NCBI GenBank assembly: GCA_937896365.1
Contig: CALBMH010000001.1
Coordinates: forward strand, 10,805 to 74,804
DNA length: 64,000 bases
Direction: 5' to 3'
Origin: an uncultured Alphaproteobacteria bacterium
GTDB lineage: Bacteria; Pseudomonadota; Alphaproteobacteria; Paracaedibacterales; JAKBAR01
Below are positions 28,805 to 55,466 of this stretch, piece by piece (position 1 is the first letter of the stretch; each line of letters starts with the position of its first letter). Both the position numbers and the translations under genes were made by a program. The notes under the pieces were generated by a model. That model ran no database searches, was not told the DNA's origin, and saw nothing but the letters and a program-made list of their open reading frames with translations.

Positions 28805-30796
28805 CTAGCGTTTAGGCGGTCCGTACATATCATCATGCTTGCCAAAAGCACGTTTGAAGAGGTGATTGAGGATGACGTTGAAAGATTCAGCTTTAGGCGC
28901 GTTATTAAAACGCCCTGTATAAAGGAAACGGATAATATGATCGCGTTGATCGAGAGTCAAATCGATAAAATGCAAGCGAGCACTATCAGATGTGCAATGC
29001 ATAATCTTAGCTGGAATTTTTGCTCCATCAATATCCAGATGCACGAAGCTATTTTGAACGTAAGGACAACTTCCTGTAATATGAGCCCCAGAAAGAGACA
29101 TATCTTCAATTTTAATACCCACTTGTTGCCCATCTATACATATCCTTGAAGGATGATAAACAGGAAAACGCTCCTCTTGGCGTCGCCTAGGGTGCTCAAC
29201 ACTCAAAAAAATCATCAGAAGTAAAATAAGGCAATTAAAGACTGACCACGAAGCTGCAATGGGGAAAAATGCATTCGAGGAGTTATTACTGATGCTTGTA
29301 TTGAGGCTAATAAGAATACCTCCAAGAGTAAGCATTAAAAGAATGAAGGAAACCCAGAAGGAATAAGGATGATAAAAACGCTTTTTTGAGTTATTTGCAA
29401 ACCGTCCTTTAGGTGTTACGCCAAATCCCTTTGAATAGGGATCAAAAAGACTATTAATAACAGTTGGAAGAACGTGGATAGCGTTAAGCGTATTACTTGC
29501 TGTATTAATCAATGGAACAAAGTGATAGGGCATAATCCACATTTCATAAGCGAAATTGAAAAGAATTACAGGCAGTTGATAGTTCAAAAGAACACTATAG
29601 TGATCAAGGTAAACAGAAGGAACCCCCGTCCACAGAAAAACGATAGGAATAATATGAGCCATAATGCGTGTAACGGGGCTAAAAAGCCAATAGGTTGGAA
29701 AGAAGATAAAACGATGAATAAAGCTAAGATTAGGACCAAGTGGTCCCATTTTGCTGTAAAAAGCTTGAATCGTTCCGCGGCACCAGCGCTCACGTTGAGT
29801 CATAAGGCTTGCGAGCTCTTCAGGAGCAATGCCTTGACTCAGTTTTTCATTGAGATAGCGTGTGACATACCCATGCCGTAAAAGAGTGAGGGTTGTGAGC
29901 AAATCTTCTGTGATAGACGATGTTGGCACGCCACCGCATTCTTCCAACGCTGTACGCCTTGCAAGGCTTGAAGACCCGCACCAAAAGGCTGCGTCCCAAC
30001 CATCACGCGCTGGCATCATCACATCAAAAAAAAGACGCTGCTCGTCAGGCGTGGTGTTATGAAGATGAAGATTTGCTTGGACAAAGTCCTTATTAAAAAA
30101 ATGTTGAGGTGTTTGAACAATAGCCACTTTTGAATCGGTAAAAAAACCTATGGTACGATAGATAAAGTTGCGATGGGGAATAAAATCCGCATCTAATGTC
30201 ATGACAAATTTCCCATTTGTGAGCATCGATGCATGATTAATATTCCCTGCCTTAGCATGGACGTTGTCAGCTCTACGAATGTAGCCCGCACCTTTTTGCA
30301 TACAAAACTCACGCAGCCAATCACGTTTTCCGTCATCAAGAACCCATATCTTGAGCTTATCCTCTGGCCAATCAAGATGAATCGCCCCTACAATGGAACG
30401 TTCAACCACATCAATACCTTCATTGTATGTAGGAATGAAAACATCCACTGTAGGGAGCATGTGAGGTGGCAGAGCTCTAAGAACTTTTTCATAGCGGTTT
30501 GCTTCTTCACTCCTATCCGTATTCTTGCAAAGCAGAAGATAAAAACTCGATGTCTCAATAAAGATGAAAATCTCATTTATAAAGCAAACCCATATCCAAA
30601 CGCCCTCAAAAGAAGGCATGGGAGCTATCAAGATACTACTGCCTATACGCCAAATAATATAACGGACAAAAAGAACTATCGCAAAAAAAGCAATATACGT
30701 TCTGTGATGCCCGTTATGATGATCAAGGCGAGGAAAAACCAGAGCAATGACAAGAAGAACAAGAAAGGTAAAAAGAAGATTTTCTAATAAATGCAT
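28805..30796 (-). CDS. BcsA-family processive beta-glycosyltransferase (GT2) with C-terminal PilZ domain
   Basis: N-terminal TMs precede FIPTYNEG, VLDDGKR, HAKAGNINHA, LDADFIP, VQTPQHFFNKDF, FWCGSSSLARR, TEDLLTTL and QRERWCRG (QxxRW). More TMs follow. The PilZ motifs are RRRQEER (RxxxR) and DMSLSG (DxSxxG). Confidence 0.85.
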   Translation of the reverse strand: MHLLENLLFTFLVLLVIALVFPRLDHHNGHHRTYIAFFAIVLFVRYIIWRIGSSILIAPMPSFEGVWIWVCFINEIFIFIETSSFYLLLCKNTDRSEEANRYEKVLRALPPHMLPTVDVFIPTYNEGIDVVERSIVGAIHLDWPEDKLKIWVLDDGKRDWLREFCMQKGAGYIRRADNVHAKAGNINHASMLTNGKFVMTLDADFIPHRNFIYRTIGFFTDSKVAIVQTPQHFFNKDFVQANLHLHNTTPDEQRLFFDVMMPARDGWDAAFWCGSSSLARRTALEECGGVPTSSITEDLLTTLTLLRHGYVTRYLNEKLSQGIAPEELASLMTQRERWCRGTIQAFYSKMGPLGPNLSFIHRFIFFPTYWLFSPVTRIMAHIIPIVFLWTGVPSVYLDHYSVLLNYQLPVILFNFAYEMWIMPYHFVPLINTASNTLNAIHVLPTVINSLFDPYSKGFGVTPKGRFANNSKKRFYHPYSFWVSFILLMLTLGGILISLNTSISNNSSNAFFPIAASWSVFNCLILLLMIFLSVEHPRRRQEERFPVYHPSRICIDGQQVGIKIEDMSLSGAHITGSCPYVQNSFVHLDIDGAKIPAKIMHCTSDSARLHFIDLTLDQRDHIIRFLYTGRFNNAPKAESFNVILNHLFKRAFGKHDDMYGPPKR

Positions 30797-30882
30797 AGAT
30801 CAAACCTCCCCTTTATGCCTTGCATTCTTACTCTCCTACACTCTCCTATTCTATCCATTGCACACATTACATTGCCATCTCC

Positions 30883-32106
30883 CTACAGCCTTCCCCTCAT
30901 CCCTTCGAAGGTCACTTCCCCTGTTCGCCCTACATGGCAAAAATCAGCAGCACTTTCATAAAGATCTTCTTTATCAATTTCAATGATCACTTGCATTTCA
31001 TGGGGACGGCGGATAGGGGCCACCCCTGCAACAGATTTCTCTGGTTCAGCAAAGACAGCGCCCCCCCGAATATGCGTAATCATCCCATGAATTGGCTTTG
31101 TTCCCCCCCGTAGTTTGACCTTGACTCTTTCACCGATTTTTATCTTCTCGAAATAACCTTCATGGATTGTCATATCGATAAACACTTTGCTGCAGTCAAT
31201 AACATCAACAACTTTTGTTTTCTCATCAATATGCGTTCCCGGCATGACATAGGACCGCAGAACAACACTAAATTCTGATGCTCGAATATCGCGCTTTTCA
31301 AGCCCATTCAAACGATCTGTCTCTATTTGAATGCGCTCACTGATGACTTGAATCCGCGTTGTGTATTCGTTAATGCGCGAATCAATATCAGCGACCCGTA
31401 TACGTATTTCATCAATGCGCTGGTCTTGATAGGTGACTTCGCTACGTCCGTCTTGGTTAATAAAGATCCCTTTGCGAATAAAATTAAGTTCTACAACCAA
31501 ACGATCAAGCTCCAACTTAGCCTGATCAGCGACTTTCGTTGCACGTTCCGCTGTGAAAAAGGTACTATCCAAACTGGAAACGGAAATCGTACCTTTCTTA
31601 TAGAGTTCCTTTTTTCGATTGAGCAGGCGTGATGCCTCGGTCACAGAGTCGATAAGCTCTTGATGGCGTTTTTCCACCCGCTTAATATCATACTCCAAGC
31701 GCTCTGCTCTTGATGATAAATGACTTTTCTTACTCTCTTCGAGTTCTTCTTTGAGTTTTATAAGATTTGTTTTTTCTTCTTCAAGGCTGTCAATTCGTTC
31801 TTTTAGCGATTCTTTTTCGACATTGAGTTGCCCCACTGTAGAACGGTCAACGGTCGTGTTCACAAACTCAGCAATAATATCCCCTTCATGGAGCTCTGTT
31901 CCAATGGGGGGTGGAGCTTTTGTTACAATGCCATCAATCGGTGTGGTAAGCGTTACAATACGGGCGCTGACAACAGCATTAGAACTATACGTAAAAAACA
32001 AGTAGGGAAGATAGATAGCTGCTACAACACAAAGCAGCCCGATACCAAACGCAAGGCGTAAGATCTGGAACTTTGTAAAGCCAAAGCCTTCGGGAGCTGC
32101 AGACAA
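30883..32106 (-). CDS. HlyD-family periplasmic adaptor (membrane-fusion-like) protein
   Basis: An N-terminal TM (LAFGIGLLCVVAAIYLPYLFF) is followed by a lipoyl-like segment (ARIVTLTTPIDGIVTK..GDIIAEF). A long coiled coil and a beta-barrel-like C-terminus follow. It lies immediately upstream of, and co-oriented with, the GT2-PilZ gene. Confidence 0.75.
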   Translation of the reverse strand: MSAAPEGFGFTKFQILRLAFGIGLLCVVAAIYLPYLFFTYSSNAVVSARIVTLTTPIDGIVTKAPPPIGTELHEGDIIAEFVNTTVDRSTVGQLNVEKESLKERIDSLEEEKTNLIKLKEELEESKKSHLSSRAERLEYDIKRVEKRHQELIDSVTEASRLLNRKKELYKKGTISVSSLDSTFFTAERATKVADQAKLELDRLVVELNFIRKGIFINQDGRSEVTYQDQRIDEIRIRVADIDSRINEYTTRIQVISERIQIETDRLNGLEKRDIRASEFSVVLRSYVMPGTHIDEKTKVVDVIDCSKVFIDMTIHEGYFEKIKIGERVKVKLRGGTKPIHGMITHIRGGAVFAEPEKSVAGVAPIRRPHEMQVIIEIDKEDLYESAADFCHVGRTGEVTFEGMRGRL

Positions 32107-32683: not shown

Positions 32684-32758
32684 GGGTGATTAGCTCAGCG
32701 GTAGAGCATCTCGTTTACACCGAGGCGGTCGGCGGTTCAATCCCGTCATCACCCACCA
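32684..32758 (+). tRNA. tRNA-Val (anticodon TAC)
   Basis: A manual cloverleaf fits. The acceptor pairs GGGTGAT with ATCACCC and the D arm pairs GCTC with GAGC. The anticodon stem-loop is TCTCG-TTTACAC-CGAGG. The T arm is GGCGG-TTCAATC-CCGTC, and the CCA is encoded. Confidence 0.9.
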
Positions 32759-32878: not shown

Positions 32879-34255
32879 TCATGCAAAGAGAGGTTCTTTC
32901 AAGGAGGCTGAATAATTTTCTCCCAATGACTGGACTAAAAAGTCGATCACATCATGAACCAAGGATTCGTCCTCACTTTGAGCCATCAAGCGAAGGCTTC
33001 CTTCAGTACCCGAGACACGCACGACAAGGACACCTTGGTGACCAATCATTTCCTCAGCTTGCCGAATAATATTCTTTGAAGCGTCACTCTCCATGGGCAT
33101 AAATGCACCGAAAGGAAGAGTATGCGTCACTTGTGGAAGAGGCTCATAAGGATTACCAAGGACACTTAAAGGTTTACCTGATTGAATGAGGATTGCCGCA
33201 ACTTGAAGCGCTGTAATAAGTCCATCAGCTACAGGGGAAAAATCGTGTAAAAGAATATGACCGGATGGTTCTCCCCCTGTGTTCATTCCCTCTTGAAACA
33301 AAGAGGCAAGGACATAACGGTCACCCACTGGGCTACGAACAAGAGCAAGCCCAAGAGTCTTTAGGTAGCGTTCTAATCCTCTGTTCGCCATCACCGTTGA
33401 AACGATCCCCCTGCCCTTGAGTTTACCCTTTTCATAGAAGTATGGAGCAATGAGAGCCAGTATCTGGTCCCCATTGACACTCTCCCCCTTCTCATCCAGT
33501 AACACAAGCCGGTCAGCATCGGCATCTAGAACCACAGCAAAGTCAGCTTTATGCTCAATCAGAGTTTTTTTTGCAAGGTGTATATCTGTCGTTCCACATT
33601 TAACATTTGTGTTAAACCCATCCGGATGCACTCCCACAGGAATGATATGTGCTCCCAATTCTGAAAAGATGGTAGGCGCCACAGTGTAAGCAGCACCCTG
33701 GGAACAATCTAAAACGATCTTAAGACCATCCAATTGAAGCGTCTTTGGAAACGTCCCTTTCACAAACTCTATATAACGCCCTGTGGCATCACCAAGGGTT
33801 CTTACTTTTCCAAGATTTCTATAATTCGGGAGAGGAAGAGATACGATCATCCGTTGCTCAATGGCAAGTTCCACATCATCAGAGAGCTTATATCCATCGG
33901 GCCCCAAAAGCTTAAGGCCATTATCGGGAAAGTAACCGTGAGAGCCTGTGATCATGACACCTAAATTGGCACGTAACGACCTTGTAAGCAAAGAAACGGC
34001 CGATAGAGGAATAGTTCCCAGCAAGATAACATCAAACCCCATAGACGTGAATGCTGCTTCAAGCGCTCCCTCAATCATATCTCCTGAAACACGGGTATCC
34101 TTTCCAATAACCACGGTACGTGGATAACTTCCCCGAGTAAAAAAAGATGCTGCTGCTCTTGCCAATCGTATGATCGTTTCAGCCGTCATAGGCGGTACAT
34201 TCACACGCCCCCGAATGCCATCTGTTCCAAAAAGACATCGCTGAGTGAGCATCAT
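32879..34255 (-). CDS. phosphoglucosamine-mutase paralog (alpha-D-phosphohexomutase family), last gene of the pga cluster
   Basis: It is collinear with the canonical GlmM at 55467-56816, sharing FGTDGIRG, VVIGKDTR, DADADR, GGEPSGH and VSGTEG. The phosphoserine loop reads GVMITGSHGYFPDNG instead of GVMISASHNPYPDNG. Its ATG overlaps the pgaC stop (ATGA). Confidence 0.8.
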   Translation of the reverse strand: MMLTQRCLFGTDGIRGRVNVPPMTAETIIRLARAAASFFTRGSYPRTVVIGKDTRVSGDMIEGALEAAFTSMGFDVILLGTIPLSAVSLLTRSLRANLGVMITGSHGYFPDNGLKLLGPDGYKLSDDVELAIEQRMIVSLPLPNYRNLGKVRTLGDATGRYIEFVKGTFPKTLQLDGLKIVLDCSQGAAYTVAPTIFSELGAHIIPVGVHPDGFNTNVKCGTTDIHLAKKTLIEHKADFAVVLDADADRLVLLDEKGESVNGDQILALIAPYFYEKGKLKGRGIVSTVMANRGLERYLKTLGLALVRSPVGDRYVLASLFQEGMNTGGEPSGHILLHDFSPVADGLITALQVAAILIQSGKPLSVLGNPYEPLPQVTHTLPFGAFMPMESDASKNIIRQAEEMIGHQGVLVVRVSGTEGSLRLMAQSEDESLVHDVIDFLVQSLGENYSASLKEPLFA

Positions 34256-35514
34256 TGGCGTTCAGAACTCCAGTCAACTTTTTTCTTATGTTCACGCCAT
34301 AAGATGGGCATGGCTAACCACGTGATAACCACCATAAAAATCCAATAAAAAGCAGGGTAAAGAATTATATAAGGAAAAAATCGCACAACATCACGATCGT
34401 GCTTAATCTCAATAAGCCCACCTATGGTAAGTTGTAGCAAGCTGAAACTCATCATAATAACAATCCATTGATAATTAAAAATAAGATGCTCGTGATAAGG
34501 AAAATAAGAAGAAAAGGAACTTAGATAAGATGATGAATTTGAATAAAAAGAAGCAAAGAACTTCGCAGACTCAAAAAAAACGATAAGTCCATAAAGAGTA
34601 TTCCACAATATGGAAATAATTGCCTCATAGAAAATTGTCCACATACGACGCATAGACCATTGTTTTAAGATACCTTTATGCACTCTTAAAACCTGCATGA
34701 GCCCTCTTGCCCATCGCAGGCGTTGCTTGAAAAAACTTCTCAAAGTATCAGGCACATGCATCCATACAATCGCCCGTGGTTCATAGCGCACATCCCAGTG
34801 TTTCTTTTCAAGGCGCCAGGTCACATCAATGTCCTCTGTATACATATCTGGACGGAAACCGTTAATACTAAACAGGGCTTCTTTTCTAAAAGCAGCAACG
34901 ATGCCGGAAACTGTGATAATACGCCCCCATATTCTTTGGGAGCGTCGCAATAATCCAATAATGGACGTAAAATCAATAACCTGAATGCGCGTCAAGAAGT
35001 TTGTCGTATTCTTTACCCTTGGGTGCCCTGTGACGGCCCCCACACGAGCATGTTGAAAGTGCCATGTCAAATGTTGCAGCAAGTCTGGTTCTGGTTCTGC
35101 ATCCGCATCAAGAACAACGATAACCTCCCCATTAATAAGAGGAAGAGCGTCATTAAGAGCAAGTGACTTACCCTGATTGATCTTCTTATCAATAAGGCGT
35201 ATGTTCGCGTTTTTTAAAAAGGGACTCAGCTTTTGAAACGTCCCATCTGTGGAACCGTCATTGATGACAATGATCTCGAAGTTTGGGTAGGTCATCTGAG
35301 ACATGGCTAAAAGAGCACTTTCAATCAAGCGCTCTTCGTTATACACGGGAACGAGCACAGAAACTCTCGGTACATGTTTTGGAAAGACTTCATGATGCAT
35401 TTCTTCCCAACGAATTTTGTAGGTTACAGAAAAAACGAGCCACATGACAGACGTAACAATGGGATAAAACGCAACGAAAATAAAAATGGCTGTGTATATG
35501 TCTGCCCACATCAT
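34252..35514 (-). CDS. pgaC: poly-beta-1,6-N-acetylglucosamine synthase (GT2)
   Basis: PgaC-typical stretches are VLVPVYNEE, VINDGSTDGT, VLDADAEPEPD, TEDIDVTWRL and QRLRWARG, with flanking TMs. The gene sits in a pgaA/pgaB context. Confidence 0.88.
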   Translation of the reverse strand: MMWADIYTAIFIFVAFYPIVTSVMWLVFSVTYKIRWEEMHHEVFPKHVPRVSVLVPVYNEERLIESALLAMSQMTYPNFEIIVINDGSTDGTFQKLSPFLKNANIRLIDKKINQGKSLALNDALPLINGEVIVVLDADAEPEPDLLQHLTWHFQHARVGAVTGHPRVKNTTNFLTRIQVIDFTSIIGLLRRSQRIWGRIITVSGIVAAFRKEALFSINGFRPDMYTEDIDVTWRLEKKHWDVRYEPRAIVWMHVPDTLRSFFKQRLRWARGLMQVLRVHKGILKQWSMRRMWTIFYEAIISILWNTLYGLIVFFESAKFFASFYSNSSSYLSSFSSYFPYHEHLIFNYQWIVIMMSFSLLQLTIGGLIEIKHDRDVVRFFPYIILYPAFYWIFMVVITWLAMPILWREHKKKVDWSSERQ

Positions 35515-35900
35515 TTACTGCTCTTCACTTTTAAAAATGTGTAATATTTTACTTGTCCTTCTTTATCACAATCCACAACAATGATTTTATTTTTTTTAAG
35601 TTTCGCTATATTTGCAACGACTTTATACCCCAGCAAATCTCTTTCATACTCCCAAACTGCTTGAGGTATTTCCTTTCGTGGTTTAAGAGTCCTATGAAGA
35701 AATAAGTGACGCCGTATCCACGTGAGAACACCCACTAAGAGAAGGAAGACTTCCGCAGCCACAATAACAAGAATGGTTTTATAGAAATGTTTCTGTGATA
35801 AAGACGCATAACAAACACCTGCTATATACAAAGACCAACAACAAGAAAGGGCGCAGACATGCTCGCATAGCTTTAAGTAAGATAAGCGAGGTCTTTTCAT
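35511..35900 (-). CDS. PgaD-like small inner-membrane protein (tentative)
   Basis: The product is 129 aa with two N-terminal hydrophobic spans and a basic cytoplasmic tail ending KLKKNKIIVVDCDKEGQV. By eye this is comparable to the E. coli PgaD C-terminus (..LQKSHRMSVHFTSQGQI). Its stop overlaps the pgaC ATG (ATGA). Confidence 0.5.
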   Translation of the reverse strand: MKRPRLSYLKLCEHVCALSCCWSLYIAGVCYASLSQKHFYKTILVIVAAEVFLLLVGVLTWIRRHLFLHRTLKPRKEIPQAVWEYERDLLGYKVVANIAKLKKNKIIVVDCDKEGQVKYYTFLKVKSSK

Positions 35901-36081
35901 CGGATTCTTCCTCGAGTTGGCATCTGACTCTCAGACAATAAAAAGTGGAACGTAGGAAAACCATGACAAACCCCTTGACCCCACGCAATTAACATTGAAA
36001 TGACCTTTTGTCGCAGGAATACGCCAGAGATACAACATTGAATGATAAATATATGAATGTGTGCATCTTTCTCTCTTTTCC

Positions 36082-38013
36082 TTATGGTAAGTGCACAAAG
36101 CTTTGTAAAGATATCCCTTCCTTTATAAGAGAAATATCCGGGTGATTTTGAAAAAGGTTATCTGGATAGAGACTAAAGTGGCGTGTTCCCTTCGCCGATA
36201 AGTCTCTTAACTGTTCCAAAAGAATTTTGGTATCGATGGGGGCGTTTTTATCGCGCCAGTTAACTGTTTGGAGTTCAAAAATAGTTTTCTGGAGTCCTGT
36301 GGGATTGTTTTTAACCTTTTCATGCAATGCATCAAGCCACGCAGAAGGATCTTCAGCCTTTTCCATATAGGGCATAGCCATTAAAGCGACATAGTCGTAG
36401 GCATAAAGAAAGTCGTGGAAATTTTGGGCATACCATGCTTCACTCTCAGGAGAGAGGACAAGATCCGCAAAGAGGCTACGTGTCGTTTGAATTGTTGGCC
36501 GGAAAACCTTTACTTTTTCAATGATTTCTTTTGTAAAGTCGATAAGAGATCTGCTCTTCCAACGGCTCCATTTTGAAAAAAGAACAGGGTCGTTTTTGAT
36601 CGTATCTATAGAATCTGGAAAGCCTGCCTTCTTCATCGCTTCCACAGCAAAGGGGGACCAATCCTCAAAGTCTGTTAGAATATCATCATGAAAAGCAATA
36701 CCATCAATAGGGGCGTTGAAGGCTAAACTTTCGTATATTCCTAAAATCTTTTGCCGTGCTAGAGGATGAAAAATCGACGATCTTATGTACTGTTCGCGGT
36801 CAATACACTGACAATCGCTCCCAGGTATGAGGGATTTCACAAGAAGATCGTCATTCTTAAAATCAAAAGCCATAAGAGGAAGCCACGCGAAAACTTTCGC
36901 ATGAACCCGCGTTGCTATTTGCCAGCAAATCCTATTAAAAATATCGCTTCTTATAGGAAGATGGGAATTATGAAAATACAGGCTCTCTGCATAACCCTTA
37001 GCATTTATGTCTGAAAACGCCTGGAGAAACACTGTATTAATTTGGTACTGGTATAAGCGTTCAATTAGTGCATCGATATTTTTCTCCGTTTGCTTGGGGT
37101 CAGGATCATAGATGTGATCGAGGTCAATACGCACAGCTCGTAGAGTACTTTCTTGTGTGTCTTGGAAATTTTTCAAAGCAGAGATAAATGCAGAAAGAGA
37201 TTGCTCTTGCGTGTAATAACAGCGACTGACCGCATCAAGATGAGTGACATCCTTATTATAACCCTGGCCATCTAGAGTGAGAAAAACCTTTATTCCCATC
37301 TTTTTAGCCATATCAAGAGAAACCTGATTATAACGACCATAGGGCCAGACCATCAAACGCGGATTCTTTCCAGTTTTCTTCAAAATACGTTCTTGGTTCA
37401 TTCTTAAATCTTCTTCGATACGTATCTTATAATGATCGAAAGACTCATAGGCTTCCTGTTCTTTATTATAAAACCGTGTGACAAGGGCTGCCTGGGTCGT
37501 TCCTTGGGGATTTGCCACGATGCCTTTATGCAACGCAAAGGTGTGCGACGCGATCTCAACAAGTCCGGAATCAGCCATTTCCTTTATTTGACTCCATGTC
37601 AAGAATTTTTCAGCAGAGATGGTTTTGGAACCGTAGATAATAGTCTTCCCCTCTTCCTTTGCATCAATCCAACTGCCCACAACTCCGAGTACGGCTGGAA
37701 AGTTGAACGTTTTTAAAAGTGGGTAAACAAACGTATAAAAACTTTCGTATCCATCATCAAATGTTAAAAGAATGGATTTATCTGGAAGGGTTTTCTCTCC
37801 AGCTTGGGCTTTCAGGAGATCGTCAGGATGAATAGGATGATAACCATTTTCTTTAATCCATTGGAAATGCCCCACAAGATCACCCCTCGTCACAGCGTCA
37901 TAATCTACCTGATCCGCTGTTAAAACAACATCGTGATAAGCAATTGCCATAAAGTGATTTTCAGCTATCCCTGCTTCAACGATCAAAAAAATCCAGACAA
38001 AAAAATAAAACAT
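36082..38013 (-). CDS. pgaB: PNAG N-deacetylase/hydrolase PgaB-like
   Basis: A signal-like N-terminus precedes a CE4 deacetylase motif (LLTFDDGYESFY). A roughly 330-aa C-terminal glycoside-hydrolase-like domain follows. The size (643 aa) and position between pgaA and pgaC fit PgaB. Confidence 0.8.
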   Translation of the reverse strand: MFYFFVWIFLIVEAGIAENHFMAIAYHDVVLTADQVDYDAVTRGDLVGHFQWIKENGYHPIHPDDLLKAQAGEKTLPDKSILLTFDDGYESFYTFVYPLLKTFNFPAVLGVVGSWIDAKEEGKTIIYGSKTISAEKFLTWSQIKEMADSGLVEIASHTFALHKGIVANPQGTTQAALVTRFYNKEQEAYESFDHYKIRIEEDLRMNQERILKKTGKNPRLMVWPYGRYNQVSLDMAKKMGIKVFLTLDGQGYNKDVTHLDAVSRCYYTQEQSLSAFISALKNFQDTQESTLRAVRIDLDHIYDPDPKQTEKNIDALIERLYQYQINTVFLQAFSDINAKGYAESLYFHNSHLPIRSDIFNRICWQIATRVHAKVFAWLPLMAFDFKNDDLLVKSLIPGSDCQCIDREQYIRSSIFHPLARQKILGIYESLAFNAPIDGIAFHDDILTDFEDWSPFAVEAMKKAGFPDSIDTIKNDPVLFSKWSRWKSRSLIDFTKEIIEKVKVFRPTIQTTRSLFADLVLSPESEAWYAQNFHDFLYAYDYVALMAMPYMEKAEDPSAWLDALHEKVKNNPTGLQKTIFELQTVNWRDKNAPIDTKILLEQLRDLSAKGTRHFSLYPDNLFQNHPDISLIKEGISLQSFVHLP

Positions 38014-38017
38014 AAAC

Positions 38018-40492
38018 TTAGAACCTTATATTAAAATTAGCGAAGAGTGTTGTGGAATACTCGTGGACGCCATCGTACGTGGAACGTTTACGACGAATGC
38101 CGTAGCTCAAATAATACCAATTCTGGTAGTCCAAAATGTGCTCGTAAGAGACACCAAACACCCATGCTCTCCTATACCCTTTTTCCCAATACAATCCCAA
38201 GGCAGGCGTGAGACTATGCTTGAAAGAGAACTCGTAATGACGGTAAAGAGTTTGATTGAAAATAGGAGACACAGACACATAAGAGTCTTTAAGGGGACTA
38301 TAATAGGGAACATCATTTATTTTTGACTTACGCCAACCCAGGTCGATTCTGAGATCTGTCGTTTCTCTAGGTCTCTCAACAAGCTGACCTTGTATGTATG
38401 TACTCCCACCCTGCCATGCGTTGCGTCCTGTAAATTCTTGATCAAAAAACGAGACACCAAACTTAAGAGCATTGTTATAATAATACCCCGCACCTATCTG
38501 GAAATAGTGAGAAGAAATCTTATTCGCAAGTGCTCTTCCGGGTGTTTCAAGGCTGTGAAGATCAACGACCCCAGAAAAAGACCACTCATCAGAGGGAGTA
38601 CAATTCAAAACCAACTTTGTCCCAACCTGTGAATGACCTGCATAATGATCACTATGAAATGCCATCGTTGTATTTAATGATGTAGATGTGTACTGAACAC
38701 CCGCCCCCTTTGAAACGTAAGACAAAGATCCTTCTGGAAATTCTCCTGTAAGATATCGGCCGACAAGAAAGGCTCTAAAATTATAAGCAATGGGCCTTGA
38801 ATAAAAACTTCCCTCGAGAGAAGATGTACCTTTTGAACTCAGTCCCCCTTTCTCAAAACTATACCGTGACTCAATCTCCATTGAGTTGTAAGCATTCCAA
38901 CTTTTTTCTAATTTTTTGATACTTTCATCAGAGGGGTAAGAACTTTTTAGCATTTCTAGAAGTTTTTCCGCTTCCTCGTACTGGGAAAGCGACATAAGCG
39001 CTCCCACACGACTTACCTTTAACCCAAGATTTTCTTTATTATTCGTTTGGCCAATATCAAACTCTTTTTTCGCTGCTCTTGGAAGACCCCTTGCAAGATA
39101 CGTTTCTCCCAAAAGTCTTCGAAACTGGGTATTATAGGGAGCTATCTTGATGATATCCCTTAATTTCTCTTCTGACTTTGATAACAAATTCGCATACAAA
39201 AAAGAAGCATGATAGCATTCTTCAAGATTTTGCCGACTTTCATTTGACCGTTTCATTCCGCTAATGGTCGTTAATTTTTCCTGGGCACCCCGTTGATTTT
39301 TTATAAAAGTCAAACTACTCTTCAGTTCTTCGTTCTCAAGGAGGGTATAATATATCCCCTTGATAGAATCGATGCTTGATGGAGACTTTCGAAGAACGAA
39401 AGAGAAAATCGTTTTTGCCTCTCTCAAAAAGCGTAAGGTTAAATACGAATCACCCACAGCTTCTAAAGACTGTAGAGGAATGTCCTCATTCGATTTTCCC
39501 TGCAATAAAAGCTTTTCATAAAGACGAAGAGTATCTTCGTGGCGCCCTCGCCGGTTATAGACAATGAGCAAATCACAAAGATTATTAAGAATTTGCCTCT
39601 CGTCTTTTTTCTGTGAGGCTTGATCCGTGAGTTTGTCAATAGCACGATCAAAATGACTATAATTTTCAGGGTATTCTGACGCAATTCCCCATTTAATATC
39701 CAAGGCTGCTTGATTCGATTTGATTTTTTCTAAAAGGTCTTTTCCTAAGATTTGAGTCTTATCTTCTTGGTCACGATACTGTTCGTAGATCCCCATGTGT
39801 TCTTGAGAATGCAGCATGAGAATATTTCTTGCCTTCTTATCCTTGAACTTTTCTGCTTCGTAGGAAGCAAGCGCCTCATTCAATGCTTTTGCCCTTCCTT
39901 GGATTGCTTCTTTATCTGTGGGAATTTTCTCTAATGCCTCTTCGTAGTGCTTTAAAGCATCAACATAAAATCCCATGCGCATGTAAGAAAGAGCTATAAG
40001 ATTTAGGACTTCTACACCCTTATGAGGGTCATCTTTAAAACGCAGCAATAGATTAGGAATTTCGTACGGATTATTTTCTTGAAATAAAACAAAAGCAAGA
40101 CCTATATAACCATCAATGTCACCAGGTTTCTTCTGCAAAAGAAAACTATAAAAAAATCTTGCTTGATGGGTATACTCAAGCTCCCTGCAATTCCTCGCAA
40201 GCACTTCGATAACGTACAGTGGGAGGTGTACAATGGGTTCTGTTACCCTCTTTCTAAAAAGAGAATAAGACTCCTTGTGGCGACCTTGCCACGTTAAAAC
40301 ACTCATATAATCGTAAACAAGCTGTTCATACCACCCCTTGCTGCGTATAATGTAATCAAATATCGAAAAAGCCTCATCATAGTGTCCTTGGCGTGCAAGT
40401 TCTACGGCATGATGATGTTCCCTCAAGTCGTCATTACCATAACAATAAGAAATGCATAGAATAAAATATGAAAATACAAGTACTCTTAACAT
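38018..40492 (-). CDS. pgaA: PNAG export outer-membrane porin with TPR domain, PgaA-like
   Basis: A signal peptide is followed by many TPR-like helical repeats. The C-terminal region has alternating beta-strand character and ends in ..FANFNIRF, the OMP terminal Phe signature. The 824-aa product is encoded immediately upstream of pgaB. Confidence 0.75.
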   Translation of the reverse strand: MLRVLVFSYFILCISYCYGNDDLREHHHAVELARQGHYDEAFSIFDYIIRSKGWYEQLVYDYMSVLTWQGRHKESYSLFRKRVTEPIVHLPLYVIEVLARNCRELEYTHQARFFYSFLLQKKPGDIDGYIGLAFVLFQENNPYEIPNLLLRFKDDPHKGVEVLNLIALSYMRMGFYVDALKHYEEALEKIPTDKEAIQGRAKALNEALASYEAEKFKDKKARNILMLHSQEHMGIYEQYRDQEDKTQILGKDLLEKIKSNQAALDIKWGIASEYPENYSHFDRAIDKLTDQASQKKDERQILNNLCDLLIVYNRRGRHEDTLRLYEKLLLQGKSNEDIPLQSLEAVGDSYLTLRFLREAKTIFSFVLRKSPSSIDSIKGIYYTLLENEELKSSLTFIKNQRGAQEKLTTISGMKRSNESRQNLEECYHASFLYANLLSKSEEKLRDIIKIAPYNTQFRRLLGETYLARGLPRAAKKEFDIGQTNNKENLGLKVSRVGALMSLSQYEEAEKLLEMLKSSYPSDESIKKLEKSWNAYNSMEIESRYSFEKGGLSSKGTSSLEGSFYSRPIAYNFRAFLVGRYLTGEFPEGSLSYVSKGAGVQYTSTSLNTTMAFHSDHYAGHSQVGTKLVLNCTPSDEWSFSGVVDLHSLETPGRALANKISSHYFQIGAGYYYNNALKFGVSFFDQEFTGRNAWQGGSTYIQGQLVERPRETTDLRIDLGWRKSKINDVPYYSPLKDSYVSVSPIFNQTLYRHYEFSFKHSLTPALGLYWEKGYRRAWVFGVSYEHILDYQNWYYLSYGIRRKRSTYDGVHEYSTTLFANFNIRF

Positions 40493-40713: not shown

Positions 40714-41499
40714 TCAAAAAGGGGTTATGGCTGTAATCATCAAATCTTTCGTAAATGCTTGGCGCGTGGGTAAAAGAATGCCTTCGAGGAGGTGCTTTTC
40801 AAGAAAATATCCAAGAACAAAAAGAGCTTCTTTAAAATCAGTACCTTCGACAGAATGAAAAACCCGTGGAAGGGGCAATAATTTATCTTTATACAGAGCT
40901 CCAGCCTCTTTACTAACAGTTCTTCCCGATTTGGGAGAAATATAACAGAGATTATCTCTTCTCCCTGTCACAGCGCATACCGACACATCCAAACCAAATC
41001 CGAGTTGCTCAAGGAGGATTTTCTCAAACTGTATGTAATCATAGAGCCAATATTCTGACGATAGACCTCTGACAAACTGCTCAATCGCCCGATACAATTG
41101 CGGGTAGGAATGATGCTCAACAAGAAGACGGTTAAGCAATCCTGCCATACTTTGAAGGGCCAAAAGCCTTTGATAGTCTCCTCCACACACAACAGCTGTG
41201 GAGACAGGCTGAATGAGCTCATGGTCAATAAACCCCAACTGATGCTCAAGCCTCGCAGACCATGTGATACGACACTTATAACCAAGGTCAAGGGAATTTT
41301 TGCGCGAATAACGTGCAATACCATTCATGCGACCGTTCGCCTTTGTCACAAAACTTAAGAAGAGCTTGCTTTCAGAGAAATGCCGTTTTTGAATCAGAAA
41401 GCCTTCATCATGAATGCGCACAAAAGCATGGAGGGTTAGGGGGTATTTCCGTGAGTATAAAACCCCTTTTGGCAAAATTCTATGTATATAAGGAGACAT
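40714..41499 (-). CDS. recO: DNA repair protein RecO
   Basis: The stretch FEKILLEQLGFGLDVSVCAVTGRRDNLCYISPKSGRTVSKEAGALYKDKLLPLP is RecO-typical. The product is 261 aa. Confidence 0.85.
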   Translation of the reverse strand: MSPYIHRILPKGVLYSRKYPLTLHAFVRIHDEGFLIQKRHFSESKLFLSFVTKANGRMNGIARYSRKNSLDLGYKCRITWSARLEHQLGFIDHELIQPVSTAVVCGGDYQRLLALQSMAGLLNRLLVEHHSYPQLYRAIEQFVRGLSSEYWLYDYIQFEKILLEQLGFGLDVSVCAVTGRRDNLCYISPKSGRTVSKEAGALYKDKLLPLPRVFHSVEGTDFKEALFVLGYFLEKHLLEGILLPTRQAFTKDLMITAITPF

Positions 41500-41604
41500 C
41501 CGTTGCGAGGAAGGAAGAGTTTAACAAAGGTAAGATCCCTGGAAAATTCGTACAGTCTCCCCTATAATCAGCTCCATCAGAATAAAGAAATCACACATAA
41601 AATC

Positions 41605-44244
41605 ATGATCAGCAAAACATTTACCCCCAAAGAGAGTGAGAGTTCTATCTATCAAAACTGGCTCGATAAAAATGTCTTTGCCTGTGATGTAAAATCACAT
41701 AAGCCCCCCTATACGATTATGATGCCGCCGCCCAATGTGACAGGAGCACTGCACATTGGTCATGCCCTCAATTCCACAATTCAAGATGTATTGGCGCGCT
41801 TTAAGCGACAAATGGGGTTTGATGTTCTTTGGCAGCCAGGAACAGACCATGCAGGTATTGCCACGCAGTTTATAGTGGAGCGTCAACTCAAAGAACAAGG
41901 CATGAATCGTCTTGAGCTGGGCCGCGAGAAATTCCTCGAAAAAGTGTGGGAGTGGAAAGAAGAATCTGGTAGCACAATTGTTAATCAGATGAAGCGTCTG
42001 GGTATCTCTCCTGATTGGGAACGTGCACGCTTTACTATGGATGAGGGGTTAAGCAATGCTGTAAAAGAAGTCTTTGTGAGGCTCTACAAGGATGGGTTGA
42101 TTTATAAGGATACGCGCCTTGTGAACTGGGATCCCTCCTTGCAATCAGCGATTTCAGACCTTGAGGTGATTAATCGTGAAGTCAATGGGAAGATGTATCA
42201 TATTGCTTACCCTTTGGCTGAGAATCCATCCATTACACTCGTGATCGCAACGACTCGCCCAGAAACGCTGTTTGGGGATACAGCAGTAGCCGTGCACCCG
42301 GAGGACGAGCGTTACCAGCATTTGATCGGAAAAATGATCAAAAAACCCCTTACAGGGAAGCTTATCCCCATTATTGCAGATGAACACTGTGACAAGGAGT
42401 TTAGTACAGGAGCCCTTAAAGTCACACCGGCCCATGACTTTAATGACTTTGCCATTGGCAAGCGCCATGGTTTGGAATTTATAAACATTCTTCGAGCTGA
42501 CGGCACGTTGAATGATACTGTGCCAAAACGATTTAGAGGTCTATCGGATACAAAAGCACGCAATGAAACGGTAGCAGCACTCGAAGAATGTGGTGCACTC
42601 GTAAGGGTAGAGGATCATAAACTTTCTGTACCTTACAGTGAAAGAAGCGATGTACCCGTAGAACCTTATCTCACAAAGCAATGGTTTGTGGCGATGGATG
42701 GACTCGCAGCCCATGCCCTCAAAGCTGTGGAGGAAGGTCAGACAACGTTCTTTCCCAAACAATGGGAGAATACGTATTTTGAGTGGTTGCGCAACATTCA
42801 ACCGTGGTGTATCTCGCGGCAAATTTGGTGGGGCCACCCGATTCCTGCTTGGTATGGTCCTGATGGTTATATTTTTGTAGAAAAGTCAGTTGATGAGGCC
42901 ATGGAGTCTGCGACAAGGCACTATGGCAGAACCACCGTTCTGACTCAGGACAGTGATGTGCTCGATACATGGTTTTCCTCCGCCCTTTGGCCTTTTTCAA
43001 CCCTTGGATGGCCCCATAAAACATCGGAGCTTGGAAAATATTATACAACCTCTGTGCTTGTAACAGGGTTTGATATTATTTTCTTTTGGGTTGCACGCAT
43101 GATGATGATGGGGTTGTACACACAGGGTAAAGTGCCTTTTGAGAAGATTTATATCCATGCCCTTGTGCGCGATGAAAGGGGACAGAAAATGTCCAAGACA
43201 AAAGGAAATGTCCTCGATCCCCTTGATTTAATTGAGGCATACGGTGCGGATGCGTTACGGTTTACCTTGGCTATTTCCGCAGCACCAGGGCGCGATATTA
43301 AAATTGGGGCGAAAAAAGTTGAAAATTATCGCAATTTTCTTACTAAGATCTGGAATGCTTGTCGTTTTTTGATGATGCAGAATGGGAGTGTATACAATCC
43401 AGATTTTGACCCTCTCAAGACATACCTAACACTTAGCCAGTGGATTATCAGCCATACAGCTCGCTTAGCAAGAGAAGTCAAAAATTACTTAGAAGATTTT
43501 CGTTTTGATTTGGCAGGGCAAAGCATTTATCACTTTGTATGGGATACCTATTGCGACTTTTTCCTTGAATTCATGAAGCCACTTATGAATGGTGGTGATC
43601 AAAAGGCACGGATTGAAATTTTGGAGACAGCCTTTTGGGTATTTGGTGAAATTCTTAAGATTATTCAACCTTTTGCACCGTTTATTAGCCAACATTTGTG
43701 GGAGAGCATGGGTGCCCAAGAAGGAACAGGTTTACTCTGCGAACAGCCGTGGCCTCATCTGGATGAACAGTACATCAATGAGAGTGCTGAGAAGATCATT
43801 GATCATCTTAGGAATGTGATCATCAAAATACGTAGCCTTCGTGCTGACTATCATGTGCCCGCAGCAGCCTTTTTGACACTTCAAGCATCAGAGACCTTGA
43901 AGGAGGAAATGTACCAAATACTTCTCAAACGGATGGCAAGGTTAAGTGATATTGGGTTTGAGAGAGACTACAAACCTATGGCAGGTGATATGCTACTCTC
44001 GGTGGACAATGTACCTTATTATCTGCAGTTGGGTAACAGCGTAGACCTTACCCAAGAAAAAATCCGTATAACAAAAGAGCTGGAGAGGCTAGAAAAAGAC
44101 CTGATATCCTGGGAATCCCGCCTCAGCAATGAAGACTTTATTAGCAAGGCCAAAGAAGAAGTCATTGACGAAATGAAAGAACGCGTGGCATCTGCGATCA
44201 TTCATGTCGAGCAAAAGAAAAAAGCACTGAGCTCTTTGGTTTAA
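41605..44244 (+). CDS. valS: valine--tRNA ligase
   Basis: The HIGH motif is PPPNVTGALHIGHAL and the KMSKS motif is KMSKTKGN. A C-terminal coiled coil is present. The start was taken at ATG 41605 (MISKTFTPKESE..), because the longer ORF from 41482 overlaps recO. Confidence 0.96.
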   Translation: MISKTFTPKESESSIYQNWLDKNVFACDVKSHKPPYTIMMPPPNVTGALHIGHALNSTIQDVLARFKRQMGFDVLWQPGTDHAGIATQFIVERQLKEQGMNRLELGREKFLEKVWEWKEESGSTIVNQMKRLGISPDWERARFTMDEGLSNAVKEVFVRLYKDGLIYKDTRLVNWDPSLQSAISDLEVINREVNGKMYHIAYPLAENPSITLVIATTRPETLFGDTAVAVHPEDERYQHLIGKMIKKPLTGKLIPIIADEHCDKEFSTGALKVTPAHDFNDFAIGKRHGLEFINILRADGTLNDTVPKRFRGLSDTKARNETVAALEECGALVRVEDHKLSVPYSERSDVPVEPYLTKQWFVAMDGLAAHALKAVEEGQTTFFPKQWENTYFEWLRNIQPWCISRQIWWGHPIPAWYGPDGYIFVEKSVDEAMESATRHYGRTTVLTQDSDVLDTWFSSALWPFSTLGWPHKTSELGKYYTTSVLVTGFDIIFFWVARMMMMGLYTQGKVPFEKIYIHALVRDERGQKMSKTKGNVLDPLDLIEAYGADALRFTLAISAAPGRDIKIGAKKVENYRNFLTKIWNACRFLMMQNGSVYNPDFDPLKTYLTLSQWIISHTARLAREVKNYLEDFRFDLAGQSIYHFVWDTYCDFFLEFMKPLMNGGDQKARIEILETAFWVFGEILKIIQPFAPFISQHLWESMGAQEGTGLLCEQPWPHLDEQYINESAEKIIDHLRNVIIKIRSLRADYHVPAAAFLTLQASETLKEEMYQILLKRMARLSDIGFERDYKPMAGDMLLSVDNVPYYLQLGNSVDLTQEKIRITKELERLEKDLISWESRLSNEDFISKAKEEVIDEMKERVASAIIHVEQKKKALSSLV

Positions 44245-53108: not shown

Positions 53109-53472
53109 AAAGACAGGCTGATAATGACGAGAATTATCCTTCAAAGTCAACATTTTAATACGAGTCAATAAACGGATGTGTAAAACAAAAATGGAAAGGA
53201 TAGAAGGAGTTGAATACAACAACTCTTTACCCCATCTTCTTTTAAGCATGCCACGCACCTCTCCCCATGCAAAATCTCTCAAAGTTAGGGATAAGCAAAC
53301 CCTTCATTCTTATTTCTCAAGTACTCACCAACCCATTTATCATGTTTTCCATTTTTTCGACTTTTTTCTTTGTCTTTTTTCATGATTCTTTAAAGAAAAT
53401 CATGTAGAATTGAAGCTATGTCGCTTTTACGTGTACGTACTAATTCAGGGACTTTTTCGGAGGCTATGGGCG

Positions 53473-55461
53473 TTGAATAACACAATACGAAACTTTATTA
53501 TCTGGTTACTTATCGCTGTTGGCCTCTTTGGGCTTTTTCAGATGTTTCCTGGCGCTAAGTCAAAACAGCATAGCAATCCCGTTGTTTTCTCTGAATTCCT
53601 GAATAATCTTGAGGCTGGTAAAGTCAGCGACGTTAGTATCCGCGGTCAGCATATTTCAGGTAAATTCAAGGACGGTAGCCAGTTCGCAACATATGCTCCC
53701 TTTGACCCTGACCTTGTGAAAAAGCTCGAAAGCAAGAATGTACGTATTGAAGCAGGGCCTCCTGAGGAAGAATTGCCATCGCTCCTACACTATTTCTTGT
53801 CATGGTTGCCCATCTTGCTTCTTATTGGATTTTCGATTTTTTCCTTCAGGCAAATTCAATCAGGTGGAAATAAAGCCCTTGGTTTTGGGCGGTCACGTGC
53901 ACGGTTGATGGATGATAAGCGTAAGCGTGTAACATTTAAAGATGTCGCGGGTATTGATGAGGCCAAGGACGAACTCCAGGAAATTGTGGAGTTCCTCAAG
54001 GATCCTCAAAAGTTTCAACGCTTAGGGGGCAAAATCCCTAAAGGGGTTTTGCTTATTGGCCCTCCAGGTACGGGTAAAACGCTGCTTGCACGCGCTATTT
54101 CTGGCGAAGCGGAGGTTCCTTTTTTTAGTATTTCGGGCTCAGACTTTGTTGAAATGTTTGTGGGTGTTGGTGCAAGCCGTGTGCGTGATATGTTTGAGCA
54201 AGCGAAAAAAAGTGCTCCGTGCATTGTTTTTATTGATGAGATTGATGCGGTAGGGCGTCATCGTGGTGCGGGACTTGGAGGCGGCAATGACGAACGTGAG
54301 CAAACGCTTAACCAACTCCTCGTAGAAATGGATGGCTTTGAGGAAAATGAAGGTGTCATTATCGTTGCGGCAACGAACCGTCCTGATGTCCTCGACCCAG
54401 CACTTCTTCGCCCCGGTCGCTTTGATCGTCAAGTAGAGGTACCAAACCCTGATGTCAATGGGCGTGAGCAAATCTTGAAAGTACACATGGCAAGAGTCAC
54501 CCTTTCATCTGATGTGGATCCTCGTGTGATTGCACGAGGAACGCCCGGTTTTTCAGGCGCTGACCTCATGAATCTTGTTAATGAGGCAGCATTGATGGCC
54601 GCACGGAAGGGAAAAACTTCTGTAACGATGCTTGACTTGGAGCTTGCCAAAGACAAAGTGATGATGGGTGCTGAACGCAAATCTATGGTCATGACGGAAA
54701 ATGAAAAACGTCTTACAGCCTACCATGAAGCAGGGCATGCTATAGTGGCTTTTTATAACCCGGATTCAGACCCTATCCACAAAGCAACGATTATCCCGCG
54801 TGGACGAGCCCTTGGCATGGTTATGCGTTTGCCAGAAAATGACCGTATTTCCGTGTCTCGCAATCGCTTACTCGCAGACTTGCGCGTTGCTGCCGGTGGT
54901 CGTATTGCAGAAGAACTCATCTTTGGTCCCGAGAAAGTGACAACAGGAGCTTCTTCAGACATTCGTATGGTCACGACTGTTGCACGGCGCATGATTACAG
55001 AGTGGGGGATGAGTGAGACTCTGGGCTTCCAGGCTTACGGGGAACCTCAACAAGAGGTGTTCCTCGGTCACTCTGTGACACAAACACGAACAATGTCAGA
55101 GGCAACAGCAAAAGCTGTTGATGACGAAGTACGTAAGATAGTGAATAGTACTTACAATGATGCGGAAAAATTATTGAAGAAAAAACTAAAAGAGCTCCAT
55201 CGCTTGGCGGGGGCGCTTTTGGAATTTGAGACTCTTTCAGGAGAAGAGATTAGGAAACTCCTTGAGGAGGGTGTGGAGCCTACTCAAAAACGGACAAAAA
55301 CACCTCCAAAAGCAGCTGTACCTAGTACAGACACAAGTGAACTCTCTAGGGAATCTGAGAAAAGAAATGAAGAGCTTCTCATAAAGAAACCGCCCAAAGT
55401 CAAAGGAGAAAAGCGGTCTTTTACCCGAAAAAAAACGTCTCCTGAAACCACAGGGGCCTGA
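53473..55461 (+). CDS. ftsH: ATP-dependent zinc metalloprotease FtsH
   Basis: Walker A is GPPGTGKT, the SRH region is [22 protein letters not shown], and the zinc motif is HEAGHAI. The start was taken at TTG 53473 (MNNTIRNF..), with GGAGG 8 nt upstream. The ORF track starts at 53410. Confidence 0.96.
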
Positions 55462-55466
55462 AAATT

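Follow-up and report, generated by a model that had tools for sequence, protein, structure and literature searches.

In Escherichia coli, poly-beta-1,6-N-acetylglucosamine (PNAG) is synthesized and exported by the products of pgaABCD (hmsHFRS in Yersinia and bpsABCD in Bordetella), which comprise a tetratricopeptide repeat (TPR)/beta-barrel porin, a deacetylase with CE4 (carbohydrate esterase family 4) and GHL13 domains, a glycosyltransferase family 2 (GT2) synthase, and a small partner with two transmembrane helices. PgaC of E. coli depends on PgaD, and cyclic di-GMP binds at the membrane-proximal interface between the two and stabilizes the complex (PMC8461298). Of the subunits of the PNAG synthase, PgaD is understood least; its sequence diverges rapidly, and no structure of it has been solved. 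A survey of such operons reported environmental pga loci "lacking detectable pgaD" and regarded pgaD as "too divergent to detect" (PMC7112194). The product of the staphylococcal icaADBC locus is PNAG as well, and its GT2 synthase likewise needs a small membrane partner for full activity, but IcaD follows IcaA, there is no outer-membrane porin, and IcaB is a single-domain deacetylase. IcaD has been described as non-homologous to PgaD (PMC7112194). Described here is a pga-type locus at positions 32879-40492 of a 64,000-nucleotide stretch of DNA from an uncultured alphaproteobacterium. This stretch is referred to below as the window, and all coordinates are window positions.

As the preliminary description of this DNA had reported, the region contains five open reading frames (ORFs), all on the minus strand, and all four Pga functions are recognizable among them. 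In reading order they are pgaA (38018-40492), pgaB (36082-38013), a pgaD-like gene (35511-35900), a pgaC-like gene (34252-35514), and glmM2 (32879-34255), the last being a second gene for phosphoglucosamine mutase. We consider it likely that the locus directs the synthase-dependent biosynthesis and export of PNAG with a divergent PgaC/PgaD subfamily, by the mechanism outlined below. As in E. coli, pgaA and pgaB come first, and the small subunit is closely coupled to the synthase. Unlike in E. coli, the small subunit is encoded upstream of pgaC and goes undetected by the standard PgaD hidden Markov models (HMMs), the PgaC-like protein scores below its family cutoff, a gap of 181 bp follows pgaB, and an extra glmM gene overlaps the 3' end. 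In contrast to icaADBC, the window locus has a full Gram-negative PgaA and PgaB. The three distal genes are chained by the ATGA stop/start overlaps that had been described previously. The stop codon of the pgaD-like gene shares four base pairs with the start codon of pgaC at 35511-35514, as read directly in the sequence, and from the ORF coordinates the pgaC stop and the glmM2 start overlap in the same manner at 34252-34255.

The pgaD-like gene encodes a predicted inner-membrane protein of 129 amino acid residues, in which two transmembrane helices are accompanied by a basic juxtamembrane motif (W61-RRHLFLHRTLKPRK) and a small beta-sheet on the cytoplasmic side. A word-indexed homologue search with this protein found only itself, and the profile version added few members; a metagenome scan with a three-sequence alignment of the small protein gave no match. 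Exhaustive scanning of 1.84 billion representative proteins with HMMER yielded 16 homologues with E values from 1.5e-27 to 5e-4, which are 110-143 residues in length apart from one with a Lys-rich tail. The family alignment is characterized by two hydrophobic helices, an invariant tryptophan that ends the second helix and precedes a basic stretch in which one arginine is invariant, a Y-x-x-D-(W)-L-G motif, and a C-terminal K-x-x-K-I-I-x-I ... K-x-Y hairpin. An AlphaFold2 model calculated with this alignment as input has a predicted local distance difference test (pLDDT) score of 86.8 and contains helices at residues 8-34 and 39-71, a short helix, and three strands. Basic residues lie at the cytoplasmic ends of both predicted helices. 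The model thus displays the layout of PgaD, with two predicted N-terminal transmembrane helices and a cytoplasmic C-terminal tail. Foldseek found nothing for it below E = 2 in the PDB, which holds no entry for PgaD. One member, P0128 (positions 4631-5335 of contig L004, from the metagenome-assembled genome ELA030), carries an additional C-terminal tail of ~100 residues with Lys/Pro/Thr/Ala-rich repeats (KPKxK...); the other family members are without such a tail.

The relationship of this family to PgaD was evaluated with six canonical PgaDs from the annotated pgaABCD loci of the E. coli chromosome, an E. coli plasmid, Klebsiella, Plesiomonas, Ralstonia, and Burkholderia. These were gathered through PgaC matches; a tblastn search with E. 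coli PgaD (plasmid sequences) returned E. coli only. When the 21-member family was aligned with the six PgaDs in hhalign, the probability was 82.6%, with a score of 38.2 and an E value of 1e-5, and the match covered 68 co-linear columns from the tryptophan motif of the second helix to the C-terminal hairpin. All 81 of the controls scored lower, namely the reversed alignment (16.1), 40 global column shuffles (16.4 or less), and 40 local shuffles (27.3 or less). The distant family members alone matched canonical PgaD at 85% (85.4% at most) over 111 columns. A W-x-x-[YH]-N juxtamembrane motif and the C-terminal hairpin can be seen in the alignments of both the family and PgaD. The search with the PgaD model PF13994 that the preliminary description had proposed gave nothing for the 129-residue protein itself, but it did give co-linear matches for three of its relatives, P0136 (E = 0.003), P0142 (E = 0.0064), and P0143 (E = 0.11), none of which reaches the gathering score. 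Between P0136 and the window protein the E value is 7e-7, and the gene for P0136 lies 16 bp after that for the GT2 in a locus with the canonical A-B-C-D order (TPR-porin/deacetylase/GT2/small-protein).

Several results weigh against the assignment. The 129-residue protein is without a match in Pfam, even at E values up to 10, or in NCBIfam. A BLASTP comparison with E. coli PgaD gave an E value of 1.5, and the family profile aligned with E. coli PgaD alone at a probability of 6.8%. The closest clade of the window protein, when taken alone, reached a probability of only 16% against canonical PgaD, and thus the link of the window protein to PgaD is a transitive one that runs through the distant members of the family. 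These observations would be accounted for if the protein were an unrelated membrane partner, an analogue of PgaD in the sense that IcaD is, with a likeness due to a convergent two-helix architecture. That explanation appears quite unlikely, given the co-linear alignment with the six PgaDs that no control approached, the three independent members that match PF13994 co-linearly, the member that occupies the canonical slot after pgaC, and the common juxtamembrane motif and hairpin. Furthermore, the Burkholderia PgaD in canonical position is likewise without an NCBIfam match, so that a missing HMM match is weak evidence against PgaD identity. The window protein is significantly related to the distant family members, and they, in turn, are probably related to PgaD; the window protein is most likely a remote PgaD. 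The preliminary description had called the gene PgaD-like, and what upholds that name is the evidence at the level of the family rather than a direct HMM match. Whether or not it is a PgaD homologue, the protein would in any case be the small membrane partner dedicated to this PgaC subfamily.

The position of the gene upstream of pgaC is not a one-off. At least nine distinct contig lineages carry a member of the family directly upstream of a PgaC-like GT2 gene, usually with an overlap of 1-8 bp. The loci with this order are those of the window, of contig L001 (from the same organism), and of contigs L004, L006-L009, L010, L019, L020, L021, L025, and L026, and a pgaB-type gene, a pgaA-type gene, or both are often found near the pair. 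The sole exception where the neighbor could be read is P0136, which follows its GT2. The preliminary description was correct in that the order differs from that of E. coli pgaABCD, with D preceding C, but the arrangement is not peculiar to this genome. Indeed, the identity of the synthases to the window PgaC tracks the architecture. The enzymes from loci with D before C are 70% (L004), 61% (L020), 57% (L021), and 43% (L006) identical to it, whereas those from loci with C before D are 38% (L022) and 33% (E. coli) identical. Accordingly, D as a rule precedes C in a divergent PgaC/PgaD subfamily with members in several uncultured lineages, one of them the metagenome-assembled genome Alphaproteobacteria bacterium ELA030. 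We found no account of such an order in the searchable literature. A genome-collection scan with PgaC returned two loci only.

Two of the other loci deserve description in their own right. That at 4473-8839 of contig L006, which is found also on L007-L009, is a more distant variant with genes that overlap or nearly do so. It encodes, in order, a 285-residue protein that has no match in Pfam and no significant one in NCBIfam, a 161-residue PgaD-like protein, a PgaC-like protein (394 bits), and a 580-residue TPR protein with a weak match to PgaA_barrel; there is no recognizable PgaB. The locus at 3535-8700 of contig L022 displays the canonical A-B-C-D order, and in it the gene for a 297-residue deacetylase with only a CE4 domain overlaps that for an 886-residue TPR protein. 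This deacetylase is an IcaB-like PgaB inside a locus of the Gram-negative type.

The synthase of the window locus, a GT2 protein of the processive type with 420 residues, has TIGR03937 (PgaC_IcaA) as its top family with a score of 352.5 bits and covers model positions 2-403 of 407. All of the GT2 motifs named in the preliminary description, DGSTD, DADA, TED (as TEDID), and QRLRW, are present, and over 418 residues the protein shares 33% identity with E. coli PgaC (E = 2e-76). Weighing against a canonical product is the fact that the score lies below the TIGR03937 equivalog cutoff of 422.3 bits. The same holds for the partner GT2s of the entire subfamily, every one of which falls below the cutoff with a score of 350-394 bits, and the polymer could differ from canonical PNAG.

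The two proximal genes encode proteins that were assigned as expected. PgaA (824 residues), the outer-membrane PNAG export porin, scores 401 bits against TIGR03939 (cutoff 367) over model positions 2-800 of 800, matches PF21197 (PgaA_barrel, E = 9e-43) and several TPR families, and ends in NIRF, in agreement with the TPR and beta-barrel protein with a terminal phenylalanine that had been noted before. PgaB (643 residues) is of the two-domain PNAG N-deacetylase/glycoside-hydrolase-like type. It scores 761 bits against TIGR03938 (cutoff 322), and both the CE4 domain (PF01522) and the GHL13 domain (PF14883, E = 4e-117) were matched. The FDDGY motif and hydrolase-like C-terminal domain of the preliminary description were thus found, the former as TFDDGY, together with an ASHTFALH motif. 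With PgaA and PgaB above their equivalog cutoffs and PgaC as a full-length best match, the assignment of the locus to the pga/PNAG type stands.

Housekeeping GlmMs, such as those of PDB entries 3PDK, 7OJR, and 6GYZ, are encoded in ftsH-(folP)-glmM loci. The window contains such a pair on the plus strand at 53410-56816. Five base pairs after ftsH (53410-55461; TIGR01241, 849 bits) begins glmM1 (55467-56816), which encodes a phosphoglucosamine mutase of 449 residues (TIGR01455, 561 bits) in the classical housekeeping context. Given the presence of this pair in the same window, glmM2 is a true second copy, and the earlier claim that a second glmM is appended to the cluster holds. The GlmM2 protein (458 residues) is 53% identical to GlmM1. 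It shares with the housekeeping enzymes the signature of the four-domain alpha-D-phosphohexomutase fold (PF02878, PF02879, PF02880, and PF00408 were all matched) and a TIGR01455 score of 474.7 bits, 27 bits above the cutoff of 447.55. Its top match in the PDB is the GlmM from Bacillus anthracis (E = 2e-89). It differs from them in its location within an exopolysaccharide operon and in the many changes at near-invariant sites considered below.

The best database relative of GlmM2, P0007, is 64% identical to it and is encoded on an 11.7-kb metagenome contig (L003). The start of its gene overlaps the stop of a PgaC C-terminal fragment that is 61% identical to the C-terminus of the window PgaC, and therefore the pgaC-glmM coupling exists in a second lineage. 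The remaining top matches are ordinary alphaproteobacterial GlmMs with identities of 52-54%, and a metagenome scan with GlmM2 gave no match. A neighbor-joining tree rooted on E. coli GlmM, for which the reference GlmMs had been picked by similarity to GlmM2, grouped the proteins as ((GlmM2, P0007), GlmM1) in 200 of 200 bootstrap replicates. This grouping with GlmM1 indicates that the lineage duplicated a glmM of its own and did not import one; a foreign origin of glmM2 was rejected on the same tree, with its similarity-selected references. Among seven lineages, only the window organism and that of L003 have the appended glmM. The corresponding segment of PgaC from L003 is closer to that of the window than is the one from L004 (61% versus 53% identity), which fits a single capture of glmM in the common ancestor of the window organism and L003. 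On contig L003 (1997-6991), genes for a phage-type integrase, a Tn3-family DDE transposase, and a DUF1016/YhcG protein on the opposite strand come immediately after the pgaC-glmM pair, and the end of that cluster thus borders on a mobile element. Another GlmM homologue, P0008 (562 residues, from a 2963-bp ENA contig), contains an internal tandem duplication of ~115 residues across domain 2, which may be an assembly artefact or real.

Alginate clusters carry the precursor enzymes algA, algD, and algC. The window locus resembles such clusters in that a sugar-nucleotide gene lies beside or inside the polymer cluster; it differs in that the enzyme is GlmM, which catalyzes the middle step of UDP-N-acetylglucosamine (UDP-GlcNAc) synthesis, and in the translational coupling of its gene to that of the synthase. 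The preliminary description had considered a precursor enzyme beside a PNAG synthase to be unusual. The pgaC-glmM pair is in fact rare, being found in two of seven lineages, but an analogue is provided by Burkholderia stagnalis (NZ_CP156686.1), in which a full-length glmS (TIGR01135, 766 bits; 1051-2874 of L024) follows pgaABCD on the same strand, 264 bp after pgaD. The PgaD of that locus (183 residues; 3750-4301 of L016) has no NCBIfam match at E values up to 0.001.

The loops of the active site bear on whether GlmM2 supplies precursor. In GlmM1 these read SASHNP, DGDADR, GEQSGH, and SGTEPV, and in GlmM2 TGSHGY, DADADR, GEPSGH, and SGTEGS (within RVSGTE). GlmM2 therefore retains the phospho-serine and the adjacent histidine, the three metal-binding aspartates of DxDxDR, and the GExSGH sugar-binding and RxSGTE phosphate-binding loops. 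Against an ordinary function stand the catalytic loop, in which SHNP is replaced by SHGY such that the serine and histidine are kept and the asparagine and proline are not (changes around the phospho-serine include S100T, A101G, and N104G), and two further motif changes, TTGDG to PVADG and PTP to PLS. Moreover, of the 167 columns that are at least 97% conserved in 118 reference GlmMs, 39 are changed in GlmM2 as compared to 20 in GlmM1 and 11 in P0007. Since the split of GlmM2 from P0007, the branch of the former has become 1.65 times as long as that of the latter. Finally, no glmM follows pgaC in five related loci with D before C (L004, L006, L020, L021, and L025), and a gene that is absent from these is dispensable for the system. 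Judging from its substitutions, GlmM2 might be an impaired enzyme or one with a changed function.

GlmM acts elsewhere as a regulator at the protein level, and in the Firmicutes it controls the cyclic di-AMP cyclase CdaA. Entries for the GlmM-CdaA complex (7OJS) are among the PDB matches of GlmM2. These matches, together with the altered loops, the excess of substitutions at conserved columns, the long branch, and a TIGR01455 score so near to the cutoff, are what would be expected if GlmM2 were not a supply enzyme at all but either a decaying duplicate or a neofunctionalized protein, with a changed specificity for sugar phosphates or with a role as regulator of, or scaffold for, PgaC and its partner, that has been kept only through the overlap with pgaC. 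Such an explanation is unlikely in light of an ORF that is intact and of full length in two independent assemblies, the retained catalytic, metal-binding, sugar-binding, and phosphate-binding residues, and P0007. The gene for the latter likewise overlaps the end of a pgaC, and the loops of the protein, including SASHNP, are all canonical, which indicates that the gene originally captured was for an ordinary enzyme. It is very improbable that the SHGY loop is an adaptation rather than a sign of decay, and that GlmM2 is a dedicated component of the synthase machinery, either a partner or regulator of PgaC and the PgaD-like protein that is recruited to the membrane or a mutase with altered specificity that changes the hexosamine being polymerized. 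We read the comparison of the loops and branches as the capture of an active GlmM, the window copy of which would since have evolved under relaxed or altered constraint. A dedicated precursor supply by GlmM2 is plausible.

The gap between pgaB and the pgaD-like gene (35901-36081) is A+T-rich, and a strong Shine-Dalgarno sequence (GAGGA) lies just 5' of the ATG of the small ORF. The sequence is identical in a second assembly (contig L001). In the relatives with an upstream pgaB, the corresponding gaps are 12 (L004), 62 (L020), 28 (L021), and 12 bp (L025), and the length of 181 bp is thus specific to the window organism among the relatives compared. Tentatively, this length, the base composition, and the Shine-Dalgarno sequence might be taken to mean that the gap divides the locus into two transcription units, pgaAB and pgaD-like-pgaC-glmM2, such that export and modification are controlled separately from synthesis and supply. 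That is doubtful. The gap contains no sigma-70-like promoter and no terminator-like hairpin in a scan that covered the sigma-70-type consensus only and is weak either way, and there is neither an Rfam match at E values up to 1 nor an excess of structure (fold z-score of +1.08). The gap described previously is therefore real, whereas nothing in these scans signals that it splits the cluster. A riboswitch or small RNA within it was rejected for want of an Rfam match or excess structure.

The locus is positioned between recO/valS on one side and tRNA-Val/HU on the other, and the core genes around it include those for SecA, ATP synthase, GroEL, glyceraldehyde-3-phosphate dehydrogenase, and cytochrome oxidase. 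The G+C content of the host is ~40%, and its alphaproteobacterial affiliation was judged from the top matches of GroEL and GlmM and from a related metagenome-assembled genome. The idea that the locus is a genomic island or was acquired horizontally was rejected for want of evidence, as there is no shift in composition and housekeeping genes are found on both flanks. The downstream edge of the cluster is marked by tRNA-Val(TAC) (32684-32758, plus strand; ARAGORN and Rfam), 120 bp past the glmM2 stop, and no integrase or repeat signal was seen beside this tRNA gene in what was examined. On the other flank, recO (40714-41499, minus strand) and valS (41482-44244, plus strand) are divergent, and with both ORFs taken from their first start codon, the 5' ends share 18 bp. 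The true start of valS is probably further downstream, since its match begins at residue 45. Just beyond HU and tRNA-Val lies a second exopolysaccharide module of the synthase type (28805-32106, minus strand). It consists of a 663-residue BcsA-like GT2 (a sub-cutoff 406 bits against TIGR03030 CelA, over model positions 37-607 of 714) and a 407-residue membrane-fusion protein of the HlyD/EmrA type; no BcsB or BcsC was seen.

A mechanism can be proposed for the locus as follows. PgaC and the 129-residue protein would polymerize UDP-GlcNAc and move the growing chain across the inner membrane. The small protein, with a predicted N-in/C-in topology, would stabilize or activate the synthase, possibly in response to cyclic di-GMP by analogy with PgaCD of E. 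coli, and the conserved basic motif after its second helix would be the obvious candidate for such a role. A point against a cyclic di-GMP response is that no gene with a GGDEF domain was present among the scanned ORFs of the window. PgaB would partly de-N-acetylate the polymer in the periplasm, and PgaA would export it. In the subfamily, the pgaD-like gene would be translationally coupled to the pgaC that it precedes. The window organism and one relative would have gained, at the 3' end of the cluster, a copy of the lineage's own housekeeping glmM, which would have become coupled to pgaC. GlmM2, made by stop/start coupling, would convert glucosamine 6-phosphate to glucosamine 1-phosphate, and the flux into GlmU and UDP-GlcNAc would rise with the level of the synthase. 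This extra flux would protect or buffer the pools of peptidoglycan precursors. Peptidoglycan is clearly made by the organism, since genes for MltA and diaminopimelate epimerase lie in the window.

The locus is a variant of the well-known PNAG system and leaves the general picture of synthase-dependent exopolysaccharide systems unchanged. The divergent, upstream-encoded PgaD subfamily is a clade-wide trait, whereas the fast-evolving glmM duplicate coupled to pgaC is lineage-specific. For those concerned with PNAG synthase architecture and operon evolution, the subfamily could recover part of the "missing" PgaD subunits in surveys of pga loci, and a diverse alignment of PgaD-like proteins would help to map the PgaC-PgaD interface and, possibly, that for cyclic di-GMP. 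It would also show that the order of the subunit genes is free to flip while their translational coupling is kept. The captured glmM, in turn, would serve as a natural experiment on whether UDP-GlcNAc limits PNAG synthesis and on how a housekeeping enzyme evolves once it is tied to a secondary pathway.

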